Source: a virus (lineage: Duplodnaviria > Caudoviricetes). From it: 57,933 nucleotides of DNA. Positions 1 to 19,599 of this stretch are shown here, one piece after another; positions within the stretch are counted from its first letter, which is position 1; every line of letters begins with the position of its first letter. The notes beneath the pieces were generated by a model. It searched no databases. It saw only the letters and a program-made list of their open reading frames with translations, and was not told where the DNA came from. The translations under genes and the position numbers were made by a program. The DNA is taken from positions 1 to 57,933 of the IMG/VR virus record IMGVR_UViG_3300028767_000024. One strand, given 5' to 3'.

Positions 1-132
1 ACAGGGAATCGAAGTGCTGCCACTAACACAGGGGATCAAAGTGCTGCCACTAACACAGGGTATCAAAGTGCTGCCACTAACACAGGGTCTCAAAGTGCTG
101 CCACTAACACAGGGGATCAAAGTGCTGCCACT
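1..132 (+). repeat. 27-bp tandem repeat, ~4.9 copies visible (truncated by window edge)
   Basis: Unit ACAGGG-NNT-CRA-AGTGCTGCCACTAAC starting at 1, 28, 55, 82 and 109. Confidence 0.95.
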
Positions 133-330
133 GTTAATGGGGATGATTCGGTTGCATGTTCGATTGGATACAAAGGAACGGCAAGTGCATCACTGGGATC
201 AGCCATTGTATTGGCTGAACGAGATGATAACTATAAACTGATCACTATTAAGTCTGCCATTATTGACGGAGTAATTTTAAAGGCTAACGTATTTTACACA
301 CTGATTGATGGCGAGTTCGTTGAAGTATAA
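1..330 (+). CDS. 5'-truncated phage protein with 9-aa TGxxSAATN repeats (probable DUF7666-type repeat protein)
   Basis: Frame 1 is open from base 1 to TAA at 328-330: TGNRSAATNTGDQSAATN...AIVLAERDDNYKLITIKSAIIDGVILKANVFYTLIDGEFVEV. The C-terminus matches the usual ending of this phage repeat family. The ORF-track call 14..241 is the wrong frame. Confidence 0.8.
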   Translation, partial: TGNRSAATNTGDQSAATNTGYQSAATNTGSQSAATNTGDQSAATVNGDDSVACSIGYKGTASASLGSAIVLAERDDNYKLITIKSAIIDGVILKANVFYTLIDGEFVEV

Positions 331-6664: not shown

Positions 6665-6833
6665 TTACAATTTCACAGCCTTGTATGCCCTTTTGAATAA
6701 TATCAATGGCATCACCAACATCCTTAAAGTTGTGATACTTTTCTGAGTGGCATAGAATTTTTCCGTTCTTGGCAATGATTTTAAAGCTCCATTTCTGGTG
6801 AAAGAATCCGTTACGAACAATTATGATTTTCAT
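6648..6833 (-). CDS. DUF1508/YegP-like small protein
   Basis: WSFKIIAKNGKILCHSEKY...DAIDII. Confidence 0.65.
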   Translation of the reverse strand: MKIIIVRNGFFHQKWSFKIIAKNGKILCHSEKYHNFKDVGDAIDIIQKGIQGCEIVNEYKN

Positions 6834-7252
6834 GATATTGTAATTTTAATTGGGTCGGCTGCATTATTCAGAATATCAAATAGACGAAAGAAAATGTCGT
6901 GAGAGTCGGTTAATTGACCTACGATAGAGTTTTTTCCAACAAGAATACATCCGGCAGTATTAGCAGAAGTTGTTCCGTTGTGTATACGAATACCTTCAAA
7001 CCCTGGCACATTTAGAAGCAAAGGCATGATTCTCTGGAAGCGATTGGACCAATTCAAGATAACCGTATATGTTCCCGACGGAATAGCGGTCTGTGCATAC
7101 ACCTTTTCTTCGCCGGGATCAGTTATATCCCCATCATGGTTGTAATCCCTGTCCCTATCCTCCAGTGTTTCAGAAAATAATACGCCGTCGATAAAAAGTT
7201 TACCGATGGTATATGTCGATCTTCGTGCAATTCTTTTAAGTTTTAGTTCCAT
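6830..7252 (-). CDS. DUF5675 family putative endolysin
   Basis: YTIGKLFIDG..FSETLED..TAIPSGTY..LLNVPGFEGIRIHNG....TAGCILVG. Confidence 0.85.
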   Translation of the reverse strand: MELKLKRIARRSTYTIGKLFIDGVLFSETLEDRDRDYNHDGDITDPGEEKVYAQTAIPSGTYTVILNWSNRFQRIMPLLLNVPGFEGIRIHNGTTSANTAGCILVGKNSIVGQLTDSHDIFFRLFDILNNAADPIKITIS

Positions 7253-8109: not shown

Positions 8110-9651
8110 TCAAACGTTAGACCAATCATTATTATAGGCGCATAGGGCAGGTGTTGTTAGCATACTCCAGTCTTCGTTCAAAATCGCAGTGTATGATCCA
8201 CCTTCAAAGCCATGAATATAGTCTCCGTTTCTAAATTGTGTCTCTGCTAAATTTTCGCTTAACCACTCTACTCCATTTATAACTATTGTGTTATACGACT
8301 TTAAATTATTACCAGTATAAGTCCCTATATATCCGTTTTCGTGGGTTGTGGTAGGATTGCAAAGACGAATAGATGCGGCAGATGTTTTTGACTGCATACA
8401 AATCAGAGCGCTAGCATTATAGTAATTAATTCTATTCATATATGCGCTAACGGCATCGTAGTTGTCATAAATCCATATAATTCCATCATATTTTATCGTC
8501 CATTCGTCTCCAAAATTACCAACTTCAAGTCTTCCCCCACCTCCAATAATAGACAGTCCATACTCGTTGGTTGCTCCTTCGTTTGGTTCTTCCCAATGAA
8601 TTAATCCAATTTCTTTTAATTTACCACCAGCTAAAAGCCATGCATTAAATTCAGAATCAAATGTGTCTATTGAATTTAATAAATCTTCCCAAATACTTTT
8701 ACTTGGCACTACCCATTCATCTGAACTACTCAGATAAGTATAAGTAGCTGCATTGTTTTCATCGTTGTCATATACGCAACCTGCTTCAGTTTCTAATCCT
8801 GCCCATGTTGTATTATCAATAGGATGATAAACACCACCTTCAAAACCATGCACATAGTCACCGTTTTGGTATTTAGTTTCAGCTAAATTACAAGCCAACC
8901 ATTCTTGCGAACCAATGCAAATAGTAGGATAAATTTTTTCATCATTTCCAATATATATCCCAGTTTGACCATCTATTAGAGTTGTTGTTTCTTTTACTAA
9001 TCTAATAGAATAACCATAAGATTTTACATTAGTATATCCACCACTATCTGTAATTAAACTATCATACATTCTATAAAATCCAACAGAACTTCCGCTAACA
9101 GAAGAATTCCACATTTCAAATGTACTACCTATATTACCATAACCATTAATATTTCTATGACCAGAACCAACTGCCGTAAATCCAGTCTCATTAGTTGCTC
9201 CTGTGTTTGGACTTTGCCAATGTGTAAAACCTGTTTCTTTCAACTTTCCACCAGCATTTCCATATCCTAAAAACAATTGCATTGTTAAAATATCTCTATC
9301 GTCTTGACTATTATTATAAGATGGTAATTTCCATCCTATTGAAGCAATACCCCTACTATCAGTTGCAGCATACCAATTGTAAAGGCATCCGTTTGTGATA
9401 GCTTTTAACTGTTTTTGAGTTGCAAACCAGTTATACAATGCGCCGTAGCCACCTGTTTCAATTAGTTTATAGAGTGCCGTTAAAGTAGCATTACTCGCTG
9501 GCATAGTCACCGTAGCAGGATTAGCGTGTGCATCATCCAAAACTGATACATCACCGTCCCAAACATCGAATTCATATCCTTCTGGTGCGGTATCTGCCGT
9601 GATAATTCTAATATCCCCCGTATGTAATCCCGATTCAGTTGTTGTTGCCAT
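8110..9651 (-). CDS. receptor-binding/adhesin protein: partial InlB-B-repeat + two permuted Fib_succ_major (FISUMP) domains
   Basis: YGALYNW, GWKLPS, AGGKLKETGFTHWQSPNTGATNETGFTA, GYSIRLVKE, IGSQEWLACNL, with most motifs present twice. Confidence 0.8.
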   Translation of the reverse strand: MATTTESGLHTGDIRIITADTAPEGYEFDVWDGDVSVLDDAHANPATVTMPASNATLTALYKLIETGGYGALYNWFATQKQLKAITNGCLYNWYAATDSRGIASIGWKLPSYNNSQDDRDILTMQLFLGYGNAGGKLKETGFTHWQSPNTGATNETGFTAVGSGHRNINGYGNIGSTFEMWNSSVSGSSVGFYRMYDSLITDSGGYTNVKSYGYSIRLVKETTTLIDGQTGIYIGNDEKIYPTICIGSQEWLACNLAETKYQNGDYVHGFEGGVYHPIDNTTWAGLETEAGCVYDNDENNAATYTYLSSSDEWVVPSKSIWEDLLNSIDTFDSEFNAWLLAGGKLKEIGLIHWEEPNEGATNEYGLSIIGGGGRLEVGNFGDEWTIKYDGIIWIYDNYDAVSAYMNRINYYNASALICMQSKTSAASIRLCNPTTTHENGYIGTYTGNNLKSYNTIVINGVEWLSENLAETQFRNGDYIHGFEGGSYTAILNEDWSMLTTPALCAYNNDWSNV

Positions 9652-9654
9652 AAC

Positions 9655-12600
9655 TTAAAATATTATTTTTCTTATAGGTCTTACATAACCAATTTCAAAA
9701 TCATCATTACCTTCATCGTTTAAATCAGGACTAGTAGGTTGCCAATTAGTTCCATAACTATTATTTGGTAAATAACCAACTCTATAGATTATTTTTTCAT
9801 TATGATATTCATCCCAGTTTCCAGAACTACTACTCCAATAATTAGTTCTTTGTGTAGTACAAATAATAAAATTAATATTAAATAATCTTAAATTAGAAAG
9901 TGAAATATCTAGTTCTTTTGCACTAGGCAAATACCAATCATTGTGTTCACCACCATTGTATTCTCTTGTAAGTTTGGCGGCATATCCACTTTGTCCTTTT
10001 GCATCTAAATCAGCTATAATTAAATCAGTATAAGAACTTCCATTACCTATTGAACTATCATATGAAATTCCAGCAATAGGAATAAAAGGATCAGTATAAT
10101 AGTCATTAAAACAGAATCTTTGTTCTCCACCAATATCTTCTGTACTAATTACTAATATAAAAGAATGATCTGGTTCTATATAACTTACAATTCCACCACC
10201 GTATAAATCACCTATTTCTGGAAACGCAGAAGGCATTGATATTGTTCCATTATTTACAGTAAGCGTATAAGTTTGATCTAATACATTATATAATATATTC
10301 CATTCTCTACCAGTAGAATCAGGTGGTAATTCATCCATTAACATATCTATTGTATCGAGCATATCCTGATCTGTAATTGGTGGATTATCACCCTTAATAT
10401 CCAATAAACAAATATCAGTAGTAGATTCTATATTAGATAGATCAACTGCATGAATCAGGTTATATAGCTGTTCTACATCCATTCCTGTGTTCTTCCAGAT
10501 AATACTCTTGTCACCGTTATTGCCTGTCGGAATATCTGTGCCTGAGCAAATCGTAACTTTTGAATAGGATGCGTCAACATGGGCAATATCAAACAGAGTG
10601 GTTAAATCGCCTGTAATTCCGGTATTGGATATATTAAGATTGTGTGTGACTACTGATAGTGAGCTGCAATCCCCGGAAATAGGTGTGTTCTGAATCTCTA
10701 ACGAATATAGCGGGGTCTTAAACTTATCTGTCGGCATATAGAAGAACTGACCGACAGTATTCTGAATTCCAAGATTAGTGTCGCTCAAATCCACCGATCC
10801 ATTTGCAAGTAGTCCGCCATTATCTGTAAAATAAATCAGTTGTATGGCATTACAGGTAAACGATTCGAATAGGTTTTGTAAATCAGATGCCGGTATATTA
10901 TTGGTAAGCGTTACGGTATAAACTCCGGGCATGGAATATAAATGTGATTGTAGTTGTGGTTGATAAATCATACCCTCAATAATCACATCCGGTTCTCCTT
11001 CTCCGTAATCGATATGAGTTGAATAATTCGCTACCTCATCCTCATTTGGAGTGAAGCTAAAATCAATTGTAGTAGGTTCTGATATCTGAAATACAAAAGT
11101 CAAACTCTTGCTTGTTACATAAGCATCCATCCATCTAACCTGGAGCCGGGGCTGACCGTACTCTACCAAGGCATTTGTGCATCCACGACTACTTCCGCCA
11201 AACCACGTAGGATGGGCGTCGATCTCCACTGTTGGCATACGCTGAAGGCAGGCATACTTAATCATGCCTGTAAAAGATTCATCAGGGACTATCCTGAATA
11301 TCTTTTGGGTTACGGCACCTACCCGTACCAATACCTTGTATTTTTTAACTATACCTGGTTCTCCAGAAAGCCACAATCTATCCGTGCTATCTTCAAGGGT
11401 AATTCCTGTTGGGTAATCTTCCGGTTGTAGGAATGAACGCTCATGCCCGCCCTGCTTATAATAAGTATTTCCGTCAAGCCAATTGCAGATTGCCCCATCA
11501 AAAGTGCCAAGTAAATCGATAGCTAAATGCCCCGAGTTTATTACACATTCAATTTCGATAAAGCAGTATTGACCGTAATGAATCGGAGTCCTGATCTTAG
11601 GGCAACTCTGCCATACTCCATCTGTTGCATTACTCATCGAATCACGATATATGGCACCATCTCTAATCTGCCAGCTTGAATCGTAATTCCAAAACTTACG
11701 CAATAGGTAGGTAGGGTCGTCCGGGTTGTCAAACTGTTGCTCTAATCTAAACGACGGGTTGTATAATAAATTACCTTGTCCTTCCTGCATAAAAGGAACA
11801 TCATAATCGCTTGCGTCAGGATACATGTCAAGCTGAGGATTACCGGATGGATATTCTACTCCACCAAATACAAGTCCGCCCTCGGTTGTGATATTATTCC
11901 CGGCAGAGGGCATGTACTTGTTCTTTCGCATTCCCTGATCCCCATCAGAATTGATATACCGGTTATCGTAGGTAGGGAATAGTCCAAGCACACTGCCATT
12001 TTTATTCAGGTCAAGTAGTGCAAGAAAATCAACATATCTGGCATTCTGAAATATGATGGGTGTGTTTATGTAAACATTTTGCTTCCCTTCCGATGATCTT
12101 CCTAGTGGGGTGATTACATCAAATACGGGAGCCATGTATTTATCAGGGGCAATCGCAACTACAAACGCGGTAGGCTTTGCCGGTATTGTCACTCCGTCTA
12201 TTATTTTGGTTGTACTTAAATGGCATCCTGAGATAGCTTCGAGTTCTACCTTGAATGTAATTACCGGAGGCGGAGTCATTAAATCATACTGATTAGCCTT
12301 TGGGAAAAACTTAAAGTTAGCATACTTCTTTCTACCCTCGGCGTCGTCCATCGGGTACTCAGCTGAATTCATCGCGGCAGTATGGATGTTCTGATCTTTT
12401 GTGCGGGAAATTAACTTCGAACTAAAATCATCTGTTCCATCAAAAAGTCTTCCGAATCCTATCTGATATTTTGTTTTCTTAATGTCATCCCAAGTGTACA
12501 TACCAGAGATAAGATTCTTGTACTGATATATTCCGTCAATAGCCTTTGTAGGATATGAAAAAAAGTTCCATATAGAATCAGCAACTAAAATCATAGTTGT

Positions 12601-13464
12601 GTAAAGGGCTATCCCCTGAAAAATAGTTCCAACAGCCATTGATTCAGGGTTAGTCCACAGCTTATTCATTGCCTCCGATACCTTCTTGAGTACGGGAGTT
12701 TTATTTCCCAGGAGGTAATCAAACAGGTGCGCCAGGTTTAATGAGTTAGAAATAGGCCCAAGAGAATCAGATGCATTGCTGAATTTAGGAACAAAAATAG
12801 CGGCAACATGTGTTAAAAATTCATTAGGATTACCTACCGAGAAACTTACGGGAATATCGCCGTAGTAAACCGTGATATTGTACGAGAATACTGCATCCTT
12901 TGTGCTTGGTCCGGTTAAGTAATCTAGTCCAACCTTAACGCCCAGGCTTGAATCATTTAATACATCATCATTTCCATCCCTCAACATAGCTGATTGGGTA
13001 ATATCAACAAGCATTTTTGATTCGGTCTTTGCCGGGGAGGTGTATTTGTCTACTTCGAATAGTTTGGGCGGAACAGCTATTCCTATTATCTTCTGATTGT
13101 CGACAAGGTATTGTTGTGCGGACTGAGTCTGTGGCATTAATTCTACGGTAGGATCACCGGCAATAAATGGAGTGCCTACAACTGACTTAAAGTAAATTTC
13201 AGGTTCGCCTTCCGAGCCTTCTGTTCCTCCGTAGTTTCTGTAATGATCGGTTTGAAGCGGCAATGTGACGAGGTTAGTCTTTCTTTCCTCATCCGTATTT
13301 CCTTCGCAGTAATCGGGATCAACGTATGGTCCGGCGATGTCGTTATCGCCGTACATGACATCTGATGTAATATTTACTTTTGGCGAGGAAGAATTAATGT
13401 CAATGACATCCATCATCTCGTCTGTCGTCATATTGACCTTCTTAATCCTTCCTCTTGTAGCCAT
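9655..13464 (-). CDS. large tail/receptor-binding protein with PKD-like, LRR-like and C-terminal DUF1566 (C-lectin-like) regions
   Basis: IDYGEG..HLYSMPGVYTVTL; LNISNTGITGDLTTL; IGDLYGGGIVSYI..NDWYLPSAKEL..YWSSS..YVRPIR. Confidence 0.7.
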   Translation of the reverse strand: MATRGRIKKVNMTTDEMMDVIDINSSSPKVNITSDVMYGDNDIAGPYVDPDYCEGNTDEERKTNLVTLPLQTDHYRNYGGTEGSEGEPEIYFKSVVGTPFIAGDPTVELMPQTQSAQQYLVDNQKIIGIAVPPKLFEVDKYTSPAKTESKMLVDITQSAMLRDGNDDVLNDSSLGVKVGLDYLTGPSTKDAVFSYNITVYYGDIPVSFSVGNPNEFLTHVAAIFVPKFSNASDSLGPISNSLNLAHLFDYLLGNKTPVLKKVSEAMNKLWTNPESMAVGTIFQGIALYTTMILVADSIWNFFSYPTKAIDGIYQYKNLISGMYTWDDIKKTKYQIGFGRLFDGTDDFSSKLISRTKDQNIHTAAMNSAEYPMDDAEGRKKYANFKFFPKANQYDLMTPPPVITFKVELEAISGCHLSTTKIIDGVTIPAKPTAFVVAIAPDKYMAPVFDVITPLGRSSEGKQNVYINTPIIFQNARYVDFLALLDLNKNGSVLGLFPTYDNRYINSDGDQGMRKNKYMPSAGNNITTEGGLVFGGVEYPSGNPQLDMYPDASDYDVPFMQEGQGNLLYNPSFRLEQQFDNPDDPTYLLRKFWNYDSSWQIRDGAIYRDSMSNATDGVWQSCPKIRTPIHYGQYCFIEIECVINSGHLAIDLLGTFDGAICNWLDGNTYYKQGGHERSFLQPEDYPTGITLEDSTDRLWLSGEPGIVKKYKVLVRVGAVTQKIFRIVPDESFTGMIKYACLQRMPTVEIDAHPTWFGGSSRGCTNALVEYGQPRLQVRWMDAYVTSKSLTFVFQISEPTTIDFSFTPNEDEVANYSTHIDYGEGEPDVIIEGMIYQPQLQSHLYSMPGVYTVTLTNNIPASDLQNLFESFTCNAIQLIYFTDNGGLLANGSVDLSDTNLGIQNTVGQFFYMPTDKFKTPLYSLEIQNTPISGDCSSLSVVTHNLNISNTGITGDLTTLFDIAHVDASYSKVTICSGTDIPTGNNGDKSIIWKNTGMDVEQLYNLIHAVDLSNIESTTDICLLDIKGDNPPITDQDMLDTIDMLMDELPPDSTGREWNILYNVLDQTYTLTVNNGTISMPSAFPEIGDLYGGGIVSYIEPDHSFILVISTEDIGGEQRFCFNDYYTDPFIPIAGISYDSSIGNGSSYTDLIIADLDAKGQSGYAAKLTREYNGGEHNDWYLPSAKELDISLSNLRLFNINFIICTTQRTNYWSSSSGNWDEYHNEKIIYRVGYLPNNSYGTNWQPTSPDLNDEGNDDFEIGYVRPIRKIIF

Positions 13465-18078: not shown

Positions 18079-19599
18079 TTACACCTGTGTAATATTAACC
18101 AAAGTGTTATTATCAATCAGATATTGAATATCTCCATCAGGATTACCAACATTATTTGTCATTAGGTATGAAGGAACTGTCAGGTTAATTACTGCATTAC
18201 CTGCGATGCCATAAAATACATTATCCTCACCTGTTGTATTTCCAATTGTAGGAGCTATATAATTAGATAGATCAATGTTTATCAGGGAGGTGCAACCTGC
18301 GAAACAACTATCTCCTGCTGTGGTGACACTACCTGTTGAAGTTAGAGATGTACAACCTGCGAAACAATTACTTCCTGCTGTGGTAACATTATCTATTGAA
18401 GTCAGGGAGGTACAACCTTGGAAACAATATTCTCCTGCTGTAACTACACTACCTGTTGAAGTTAGAGATGTACAACCATTGAAACAATAATTTCCTGCTG
18501 TGGTGACACTACCTGTTGTAGTCAGTGAGGTGCAACCATTGAAACAACTTTCTCCTGCTGTGGTAACGCTTCCTGTTGAAGTCAGTGAGGTGCAACCATA
18601 GAAACAATATTCTCCTGCTGTAACTACACTACCTGTTGAAGTTAGAGATGTGCAACCTGCGAAACAACTTTCTCCTGCTGTGGTAACATTATCTATTGAA
18701 GTCAGTGATGTGCAACCTGCGAAACAACCAAATCCTGCTATGGTAACGCTTCCTGTTGAAGTCAGGGAGGTGCAACCATAGAAACAATATTCTCCTGCTG
18801 TAACTACACTACCTGTTGAAGTCAGAGATGTGCAACCATTGAAACAATTATTTCCTGCTGTGGTGACACTACCTGTTGTAGTCAGTGAGGTGCAACCATA
18901 GAAACAACTATCTCCTGCTGTGGTGACACTACCTGTTGTAGTCAGTGAGGTGCAACCATAGAAACAATATTCTCCTGCTGTAACTACACTACCTGTTGAA
19001 GTTAGAGATGTACAACCATTAAAACAATAATTTCCTGCTGTGGTGACACTACCTGTTGAAGTCAGGGAGGTGCAACCATAGAAACAATTATTTCCTGCTG
19101 TGGTGAATTTAGCACCTGTGATTTCAGTTAAACTTGAACCTCCTTCATCATAATCACCAAAAGCATAATATCCTGCATAAACCACATCGTTAAATGTACC
19201 TGTAATAAGTGCTGAATTACTAAAAGCAAAATCAGAAATATACCTGAATACTCCTGTGTCCGTAATTGAAATAATGTGAGCGTTTCTGCGAAACAGACTG
19301 TCTTTCAGAATTGACCCCGAACGTCCCGTTAATGTAACAGAATTCCCATCTACGCTAACTGCGGTAAACGGTACTCCAAAGTTTGGAAAGTCCAAAAAAG
19401 CGTTCCAGTCTGATAATGAATTGACATCTGCAACTGGTATGTTTGCAGGATTTGTAACGTCATCAAACTCTAAGGTTATTGTTTTGCTTGCCCCGTAGAG
19501 TTCGGCAAACATTGCGTTTACTGCTTCAAAACCTGCACGGATGGTATCTCCCAATCCGTCATTGGCTGCATCACCAATATTAATTGTGTACTGTCCCAT
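18079..19599 (-). CDS. virion-attached BspA-like (LRR_5) leucine-rich-repeat protein
   Basis: N-terminal INIGDAANDGLGDTIRAGFEAVNAMFAELY resembles the T4 gp9/gp10-like attachment motif; ~14 x CTSLTSTGSVTTAGxxCFxG. Confidence 0.85.
   Translation of the reverse strand: MGQYTINIGDAANDGLGDTIRAGFEAVNAMFAELYGASKTITLEFDDVTNPANIPVADVNSLSDWNAFLDFPNFGVPFTAVSVDGNSVTLTGRSGSILKDSLFRRNAHIISITDTGVFRYISDFAFSNSALITGTFNDVVYAGYYAFGDYDEGGSSLTEITGAKFTTAGNNCFYGCTSLTSTGSVTTAGNYCFNGCTSLTSTGSVVTAGEYCFYGCTSLTTTGSVTTAGDSCFYGCTSLTTTGSVTTAGNNCFNGCTSLTSTGSVVTAGEYCFYGCTSLTSTGSVTIAGFGCFAGCTSLTSIDNVTTAGESCFAGCTSLTSTGSVVTAGEYCFYGCTSLTSTGSVTTAGESCFNGCTSLTTTGSVTTAGNYCFNGCTSLTSTGSVVTAGEYCFQGCTSLTSIDNVTTAGSNCFAGCTSLTSTGSVTTAGDSCFAGCTSLINIDLSNYIAPTIGNTTGEDNVFYGIAGNAVINLTVPSYLMTNNVGNPDGDIQYLIDNNTLVNITQV
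18282..19106 (-). repeat. 60-bp coding tandem repeat, ~14 copies, with a 180-bp higher-order period
   Basis: Lines 18301-19081 align column for column; the variant TAACTACACT recurs in the lines starting 18421, 18601, 18781 and 18961. Confidence 0.97.

Follow-up and report, generated by a model that had tools for sequence, protein, structure and literature searches.

A B-repeat domain split between two adjacent phage genes as a candidate plug-and-socket joint between a constant fibre protein and exchangeable receptor binders

How exchangeable receptor-binding proteins are kept on a conserved tail is a question at the heart of phage host range and its engineering. In chaperone-usher pili and in the type V pili of Bacteroidota, an acceptor domain that lacks one strand is completed by a neighbouring polypeptide, which supplies it. 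The report on the Pseudomonas podophage A1002 describes a nozzle split between gp39 and gp42, in which strands of one protein fill gaps in the other ('structural complementation'), and fibre dimers that dock by an augmented beta-sheet (PMC13730344). In Przondovirus tailspikes, a conserved N-terminal anchor is carried by exchangeable receptor-binding proteins with variable distal domains (PMC12692247). Here we describe two adjacent genes, gpA and gpB, in a whole IMG/VR virus record of 57,933 bases (IMGVR_UViG_3300028767_000024; completeness estimate 71%), referred to below as the window. Their products each hold one part of the same divergent InlB B-repeat. We think it probable, with moderate confidence, that a conserved split-domain plug and socket joins the constant fibre protein gpA to exchangeable receptor binders such as gpB. 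The genes and the parts of the proposed joint are as follows.

9655..13464, minus strand: gpA, an open reading frame (ORF) of 1269 amino acids (aa), a large conserved protein with a variable C-terminal module.
8110..9651, minus strand: gpB, a 513-aa ORF adjoining gpA.
10237..10272, minus strand: orphan first strand of a B-repeat, TYTLTVNNGTIS, the proposed plug (gpA residues 1065-1076; from a position-specific scoring matrix, homologs and a complex model).
9460..9651, minus strand: B-repeat without strand 1, the proposed socket (gpB residues 1-64; from Pfam, a profile of our own and homologs).
8110..9459, minus strand: two Fib_succ_major (FISUMP) domains, the presumed receptor-binding part (gpB residues 65-513; from Pfam PF09603).

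Canonical divergent InlB B-repeats open with YTLTVNGGSGSGSY, the unit reading YTLTVNGGSGSGSY...TATY, and a strand of this kind stands alone in gpA. The segment TYTLTVNNGT forms gpA residues 1065-1074 and is coded by 10272-10243 of the minus strand; a degenerate DNA pattern for YTLTVNNGT has a single match in the window, against 0 expected from 100 shuffles. The repeat family, Flg_new_2, counts 3171 proteins at E <= 0.001, and the 150 listed are mostly multi-repeat. Six proteins picked from these 150 furnished 20 canonical B-repeats, whose first nine columns make up the scoring matrix. The gpA nine-mer reaches 28.2 bits on it; the second-best of the 62,818 nine-mers in the six frames of the contig has 14.8. 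Two of six inspected B-repeat proteins begin inside a repeat and look like fragments. Members of the gpA family carry I[ST].P after NNGT, replacing the canonical glycine-rich turn GSGxY.

The remaining strands of the repeat open gpB. Residues 11-64 match Pfam Flg_new_2 (PF18998) with 40.6 bits, above the cut-off of 23.6 (E 2.6e-10), and a second scan gives 45.3 bits over profile positions 20-72. In the first scan, gpB spans positions 21-72 of the 73 in the profile, the first strand and the turn being missing, and on our own repeat hidden Markov model of 66 positions it matches 16-66. No single polypeptide of the pair holds the whole Flg_new_2 domain, as the first-strand motif sits on gpA. The socket has a GC content of 0.43, typical of the genome. 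Beyond it, gpB scores 95.7 bits against Fib_succ_major (PF09603, TIGR02145), above the cut-off of 33.9 (E 5.5e-27, in 3 stretches); GC at third codon positions (GC3) in this part is 0.22. The FISUMP duplication is also visible in the DNA, where 8198-8253 and 8834-8889 (56 nucleotides (nt), 636 nt apart) are 79% identical. One contig, from run X17, skips from 8633 to 9343 (709 nt, which is not divisible by 3; side 36), and probably comes from a relative or is a repeat artefact.

Homologs of gpA were sought with residues 760-1082, by scoring the 7,999 candidates that share most words with the query. Six were found (1065-1457 aa, 47-56% identity over 760-1082) and the strand is present in all of them, so that the family, gpA included, has an unaccompanied first strand in seven of seven members. 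In P0004, P0005 and P0006 all 11 aligned residues of the strand are identical to those of gpA, from which these proteins differ elsewhere (36-70% identity); the strand is the best-conserved segment of gpA. The sequence after it takes the following forms.

P0003: C-terminus after the strand, ...YTLIVNNGIISIPTP.
P0004: C-terminus after the strand, ...YTLTVNNGTISIP.
P0007: C-terminus after the strand, ...YTLTVNNGTITT.
P0005: YTLTVNNGTISMP, then an LRR_5 domain (E 4.4e-30).
P0006: YTLTVNNGTISS, followed by a FISUMP-like domain (E 5e-20 against gpB, 33% identity).
P0002: a whole B-repeat (Pfam E 2.7e-09) exactly at the point where P0007 ends, then a terminal orphan strand, YLDLTVNGGTIS.

The predicted proteins P0003, P0004 and P0007 stop 2-6 residues past the strand, and the tails of the first two (ISIP...) resemble the beginning of the window's linker. 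Where the sequence extends at least 6 residues past the strand, as in the window, P0005 and P0006, what follows is in every case something other than a B-repeat; none of the six homologs runs from that strand into the remainder of a B-repeat. On the socket side, gpB residues 1-75 have two homologs among 40 candidates, P0009 (289 aa) and P0010 (486 aa), with 72-78% identity, and all three gpB-type proteins have their initial Met in the same repeat loop. P0009 holds one FISUMP domain and P0010 two, and the two-FISUMP structure of gpB is also apparent in alignment with them. Twelve further FISUMP loci (L002-L013) have other N-termini without any strand-like motif, and are therefore uninformative on the split.

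We find that the two halves fit together in silico. The complex of gpA 860-1269 with gpB 1-78 was modelled in three runs, each protein with its own alignment, alongside 3 controls. The interface score ipSAE between gpA and gpB was 0.83, 0.82 and 0.83, and that of the best control 0.00; 58 of 80 solved complexes attain this mark, as do 2 of 110 mismatched pairs, counts that are only rough here because own alignments were used. The three runs have at least 96% of contacts in common. The gpB domain has a predicted local distance difference test score (pLDDT) of 83-84 with gpA, as against 56 with an unrelated protein in its place. On the gpA side the predicted interface comprises only residues 1064-1078 (10231-10275), and on the gpB side residues 1-11, 14-20, 47-48 and 50-61. 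In the model, gpA 1066-1071 is flanked by gpB 54-59, the last strand, and by gpB 6-9, while gpA 1074-1075 contacts gpB 16-18; the gpA strand holds the central place in the sheet, as it does in a whole repeat. The initial annotation, made from the DNA alone, had already recognised TYTLTVNNGT as the first strand of a B-repeat and the start of the next gene at 9651 as the rest of that domain. Both observations hold, the coordinates included (28.2 against 14.8 bits for the strand; Flg_new_2 positions 21-72 of 73 for the rest). Its further proposal, that the two products reassemble by strand complementation, is favoured by the model (ipSAE 0.83 against 0.00).

Taken as a mechanism, gpA would provide the first strand only (YTLTVNNGTIS) and gpB would begin with the remaining strands of the same B-repeat. 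After translation, the gpA strand would enter the middle of the gpB sheet, between residues 6-9 and 54-59, and so fasten gpB to gpA. The constant body would retain the plug, and genes headed by a socket could be swapped behind it. In the window, the plug is itself followed by a further domain, in a region of unusual composition.

9664..10218, minus strand: Lcl_C/DUF1566-like C-terminal module (gpA residues 1083-1267; from identity to an ORF of the viral contig L001, a Pfam score below cut-off and Atlas).
9655..10470, minus strand: AT-rich block that takes in the final ~65 residues of the conserved body along with the strand and the Lcl_C-like module (from the shifts in GC3 and identity; read as an exchanged unit).
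9652..9657, minus strand: gpA stop TAA (9657-9655) and GTT, followed by the gpB ATG at 9651 in the same frame.

The halves of the repeat are separated by 8 linker residues and the 185-residue module, then TAA, GTT and the gpB ATG. Lcl_C (PF07603) scores 18.3-21.4 bits on the module, below its cut-off of 34.9, and 20.8 bits on the L001 homolog. Among the Atlas neighbours of the module, 13 of 30 lie in Lcl_C clusters (score 0.96), and a Porphyromonas phage protein, annotated by its depositor as DUF1566 with C-type lectin fold, is 31% identical to it. The module is 52% identical to part of an unrelated 308-aa ORF on another viral contig (L001, 5773-6699). In that ORF the module stands behind a short N-terminal part and has a weak Trp_ring-like tail (E 0.0072), and the neighbouring genes are tail-like. 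An AlphaFold2 model of gpA 1060-1269 from a 2-row alignment has a mean pLDDT of 28.4, and the module has no PDB sequence match at E <= 1.

Positions 9655-10242 have the lowest GC of any 588-nt stretch in the contig (0.289, against a mean of 0.402 with a standard deviation of 0.029), and a GC3 of 0.087. The fall in GC3, from 0.3-0.5 to at most 0.16, occurs at about residue 1000 (~10470), and GC3 stays low up to the gpA stop; exactly at the gpB start the composition is back to the genome norm (GC 0.43-0.45). Identity between gpA and P0002 is 80% over residues 986-1064 and 52% over 901-985; it is 41-62% in the seven bins of 301-985 and 22-46% in the first three bins. The mosaic breakpoint at ~10470-10510 (gpA ~985-1000) lies within the conserved body and coincides with the GC3 drop. 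Given that the low-GC3 block and the rise in identity to P0002 both start ~65 codons before the strand, the simplest reading is that the entire 3' end of gpA, together with the strand, was homologously exchanged with an AT-richer relative; the direction of the exchange we infer. The 3' end of gpA (~990 to stop) would have been swapped as one block, carrying the Lcl_C/DUF1566-like domain along behind the plug. Since gpA would then have its own lectin-like domain behind the plug and also hold gpB, the outcome may be a branched adhesin, with the one Lcl_C-like domain of gpA and the two FISUMP domains of a docked gpB.

Is the strand on gpA in fact a docking element? An alternative, which we hold to be unlikely but worth weighing, is that no docking takes place: the strand would be kept as the closing strand of the fold of gpA itself, or as the junction at which C-terminal modules recombine, the repeat in gpB a remnant or a linker, and gpB attached otherwise or not at all. 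The strand does mark the constant/variable boundary in seven of seven members, as a recombination junction would, and mosaicism is evident. Adjacent plug and socket genes are known from this window, P0002-P0007, P0009 and P0010 being known as proteins only. Moreover, a predictor that knows the whole-repeat fold may simply rebuild it from its halves whether they bind or not, and is silent on affinity and on the cell, which makes the model support rather than proof. Yet a relic would be expected to decay, whereas the strand is unchanged at all 11 aligned positions in three homologs that are ~50% identical to gpA, and the socket keeps 72-78% identity in proteins that differ in their later domains. 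The recombination breakpoint lies upstream of the strand and not at it. The model, for its part, places the strand centrally in the gpB sheet, and the confidence of the gpB domain falls from 83-84 to 56 when an unrelated protein takes the place of gpA.

Other points weigh against a plug and socket. The ends of P0003, P0004, P0007 and P0002 might be contig breaks instead of stop codons: these homologs are known as proteins only, and the boundary between conserved and variable sequence is a typical point for assemblies to break. The argument for a split would in that case draw on the forms that continue past the strand, on the ISIP... tails and on the Met-initiated sockets. A search for longer proteins with a gpB-like repeat gave none, since not one of 150 candidates scored, which is weak evidence. 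From gene position and adhesin-type domains we take gpA to be a tail fibre or baseplate protein and gpB to be paired with it as a tail-fibre protein; the placing of both in the virion comes solely from gene order and domain types. As its AT-rich composition suggests, the 3' end of gpA may be a recent arrival, in which case selection may not yet have acted on the plug-socket pair of this phage. Finally, docking might be obstructed by a bulky domain placed right behind the plug.

The initial annotation had explained the split differently, as a DUF1566 cassette that cut one ancestral gene. In its full form this is a lineage-specific insertion: a cassette with its own stop, followed by a new start, entered the loop between strands 1 and 2, and the two products reassemble. 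We regard it as improbable. The Lcl_C-like segment does lie exactly between the halves and closes with a stop codon, the next start coming 3 nt later (TAA, GTT, ATG in the same frame), much as the annotation had it; gpA and gpB share a frame; and a 52% identical copy in an unrelated 308-aa ORF indicates that the module is mobile. The ~590 nt between the halves are indeed the contig's most AT-rich 588 nt, but the low-GC3 block to which they belong starts at about residue 1000 and includes the strand. The segment had also been called a complete DUF1566 domain, for which the Lcl_C score is too low (18.3-21.4 bits against 34.9), while Atlas, the Porphyromonas phage protein and L001 point that way. 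Insertion into an intact repeat predicts foreign composition after the strand and uninterrupted relatives free of the module. Neither is seen, and the cassette as cause of the split is therefore not supported. The break in GC and codon usage, with the mosaic breakpoint, falls within the gpA body ~65 codons before the strand; homologs free of the module have the same orphan strand and I[ST].P, two of them with unrelated domains there, so that across the seven members three different domain types, or the end of the protein, follow the strand. In addition, gpB-type proteins elsewhere already start at the same loop (three of three with gpB), and neither direct repeats nor a target-site duplication were found flanking the module.

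Near-identical DNA was listed from 24 peat-metagenome runs, 10 of which are possibly the source sample. Contigs from three other runs span both junctions with zero differences, and no cassette-free form was found in the 4 of 24 runs examined, where the short contigs are identical to the window and the parts they leave uncovered prove nothing. As for an uninterrupted homolog, P0002 does have a whole B-repeat where P0007 ends, and it then ends in a second orphan strand. A far older variant, with an insertion in the family ancestor and later swaps of the appended domain, is a possible origin of the split. The annotation had further suggested repeated gain of lectin-like domains at this site: this holds in part, one of the three appended domains being LRR_5. 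On the best reading, the lectin-like domain rides along behind the plug and did not bring about the split.

That the TAA is read through, to yield a gpA-gpB fusion with the Lcl_C-like domain nested in the first B-repeat loop, is hardly credible: gpA and gpB are in the same frame with only TAA GTT between them, but a shared frame is expected in 1 of 3 cases, 3 of 31 junctions are alike, TAA is the commonest stop of the genome (20 of 32) and the gpB homologs start with Met at this place; for read-through signals beyond frame, gap and stop usage no further search was made. Because 3 of the 31 gene junctions on the minus strand have the three-base same-frame form, that between gpA and gpB is ordinary for this genome, and its shared frame is taken as chance. 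Stop-codon recoding was ruled out, as all three stops are in use. A likeness by eye between AATGGAACAATA (gpA N-G-T-I) and ATGGCAACAACA (gpB M-A-T-T), 9 of 12 nucleotides in frame, is treated as chance because it is conserved in neither P0009 nor P0010.

DUF1566 is already in print as a C-type lectin target of diversity-generating retroelements. The initial annotation saw no such element here, and we likewise find no RVT_1 match at E <= 0.1 within the contig and no template/variable pair, none of 8 direct-repeat families (>=35 nt) touching 9655-10242. As the contig is 71% complete, such an element could lie elsewhere in the genome.

The gpA/gpB pair lies near the downstream end of a long block of genes on the minus strand, which carries nearly all large genes of the window, and gpA is the penultimate gene of this block. 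Downstream of gpB come a coiled-coil/membrane-like ORF, a DUF5675 protein and small ORFs. The DUF5675 protein (6830-7252, minus strand; 140 aa, E 9.1e-27, phrog_1501) is two ORFs past gpB. For the body of gpA, Pfam and PHROGs yield no function, and an Atlas search with residues 1-1064 gave no usable match. Similarity of the DNA to phage records is limited to short, chance-like matches, none of them at the junction, and the gpB N-terminus has no tblastn match in 50,697 phage records. A scan of viral contigs for loci of the family returned only the L001 module and a remnant of 109 aa on L014; DNA patterns for YTLTVNNGTI and ANPATVTMP had 0 occurrences each in viral contigs. The L014 remnant is a lone ORF at 516-845 of an unrelated viral contig, 57% identical to gpA 314-401, and looks like what is left of a gpA-family gene. 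Metagenome contigs gave no family locus with queries A1 and A2; in genome contigs A1 gave none, and A2 gave 3 generic bacterial B-repeats.

A second candidate adhesin is encoded in the same structural block (18079-19599, minus strand; 506 aa), with BspA-type LRR_5 repeats (E 5.3e-45) that correspond to 13 tandem copies of a 60-nt unit at 18162-19181. The same domain type stands behind the orphan strand in the homolog P0005. At the extreme left end of the window (1-162) is a 27-nt tandem repeat in 5 copies, which may have stopped assembly.

Returning to the plug and socket, a broader claim can be made only tentatively: the split at the first loop may be a general, heritable standard, in which any downstream gene that begins with a strand-less repeat could dock and a further domain after the plug would give branched fibres. 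With its whole repeat and the new orphan strand behind it, P0002 suggests that chains of such units could form. If this is so, host range could shift by swapping either side of the split without the interface having to evolve again. The interface would be one of ~12 residues, nearly invariant, enforced by the fold and recognisable from sequence alone, and would let one predict which neighbouring genes make one fibre in uncultured phages. It would also be a natural counterpart of engineered split-domain tags.

How does the locus compare with described systems? The tandem Flg_new_2 arrays of bacterial surface proteins belong to the same repeat family, and the two halves found here sum to one of their units. 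In those arrays, however, every repeat is whole and within one chain, whereas here a gene boundary falls inside the loop after the first strand. The likeness to donor-strand pili is one of mechanism, not of membership. The profiles show that gpB lacks a strand, and its supply in trans by gpA is predicted; in pili the folds are Ig-like pilin folds, the chains polymerise and a chaperone or protease step is involved, whereas here one B-repeat strand would link two distinct phage proteins a single time. Scans of 23 window proteins with Pfam or PHROGs, in which no search was aimed at such families, showed no pilin, chaperone or usher family. The anchors of tailspikes are whole domains that bind a partner surface (PMC12692247), whereas the anchor here would be an incomplete domain that its partner completes.

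A close parallel is A1002: there a domain that is a single chain in other phages is divided between two genes, and here a B-repeat extends over two adjacent genes, P0002 showing the whole repeat in one chain at the point where P0007 ends. The A1002 nozzle consists of a beta-propeller and platform solved by cryo-electron microscopy, whereas the joint proposed here is a B-repeat and is predicted; the A1002 split is not described as a junction for exchanging receptor binders. In the open literature, supplements excluded, we found no description of a B-repeat split between phage fibre genes, or of strand complementation as a fibre junction. The principle has precedents in A1002, in pili and in tailspike anchors. 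If gpA does hold gpB in this way, the structural complementation of a solved podophage tail (PMC13730344) would have a second example, built on another fold.

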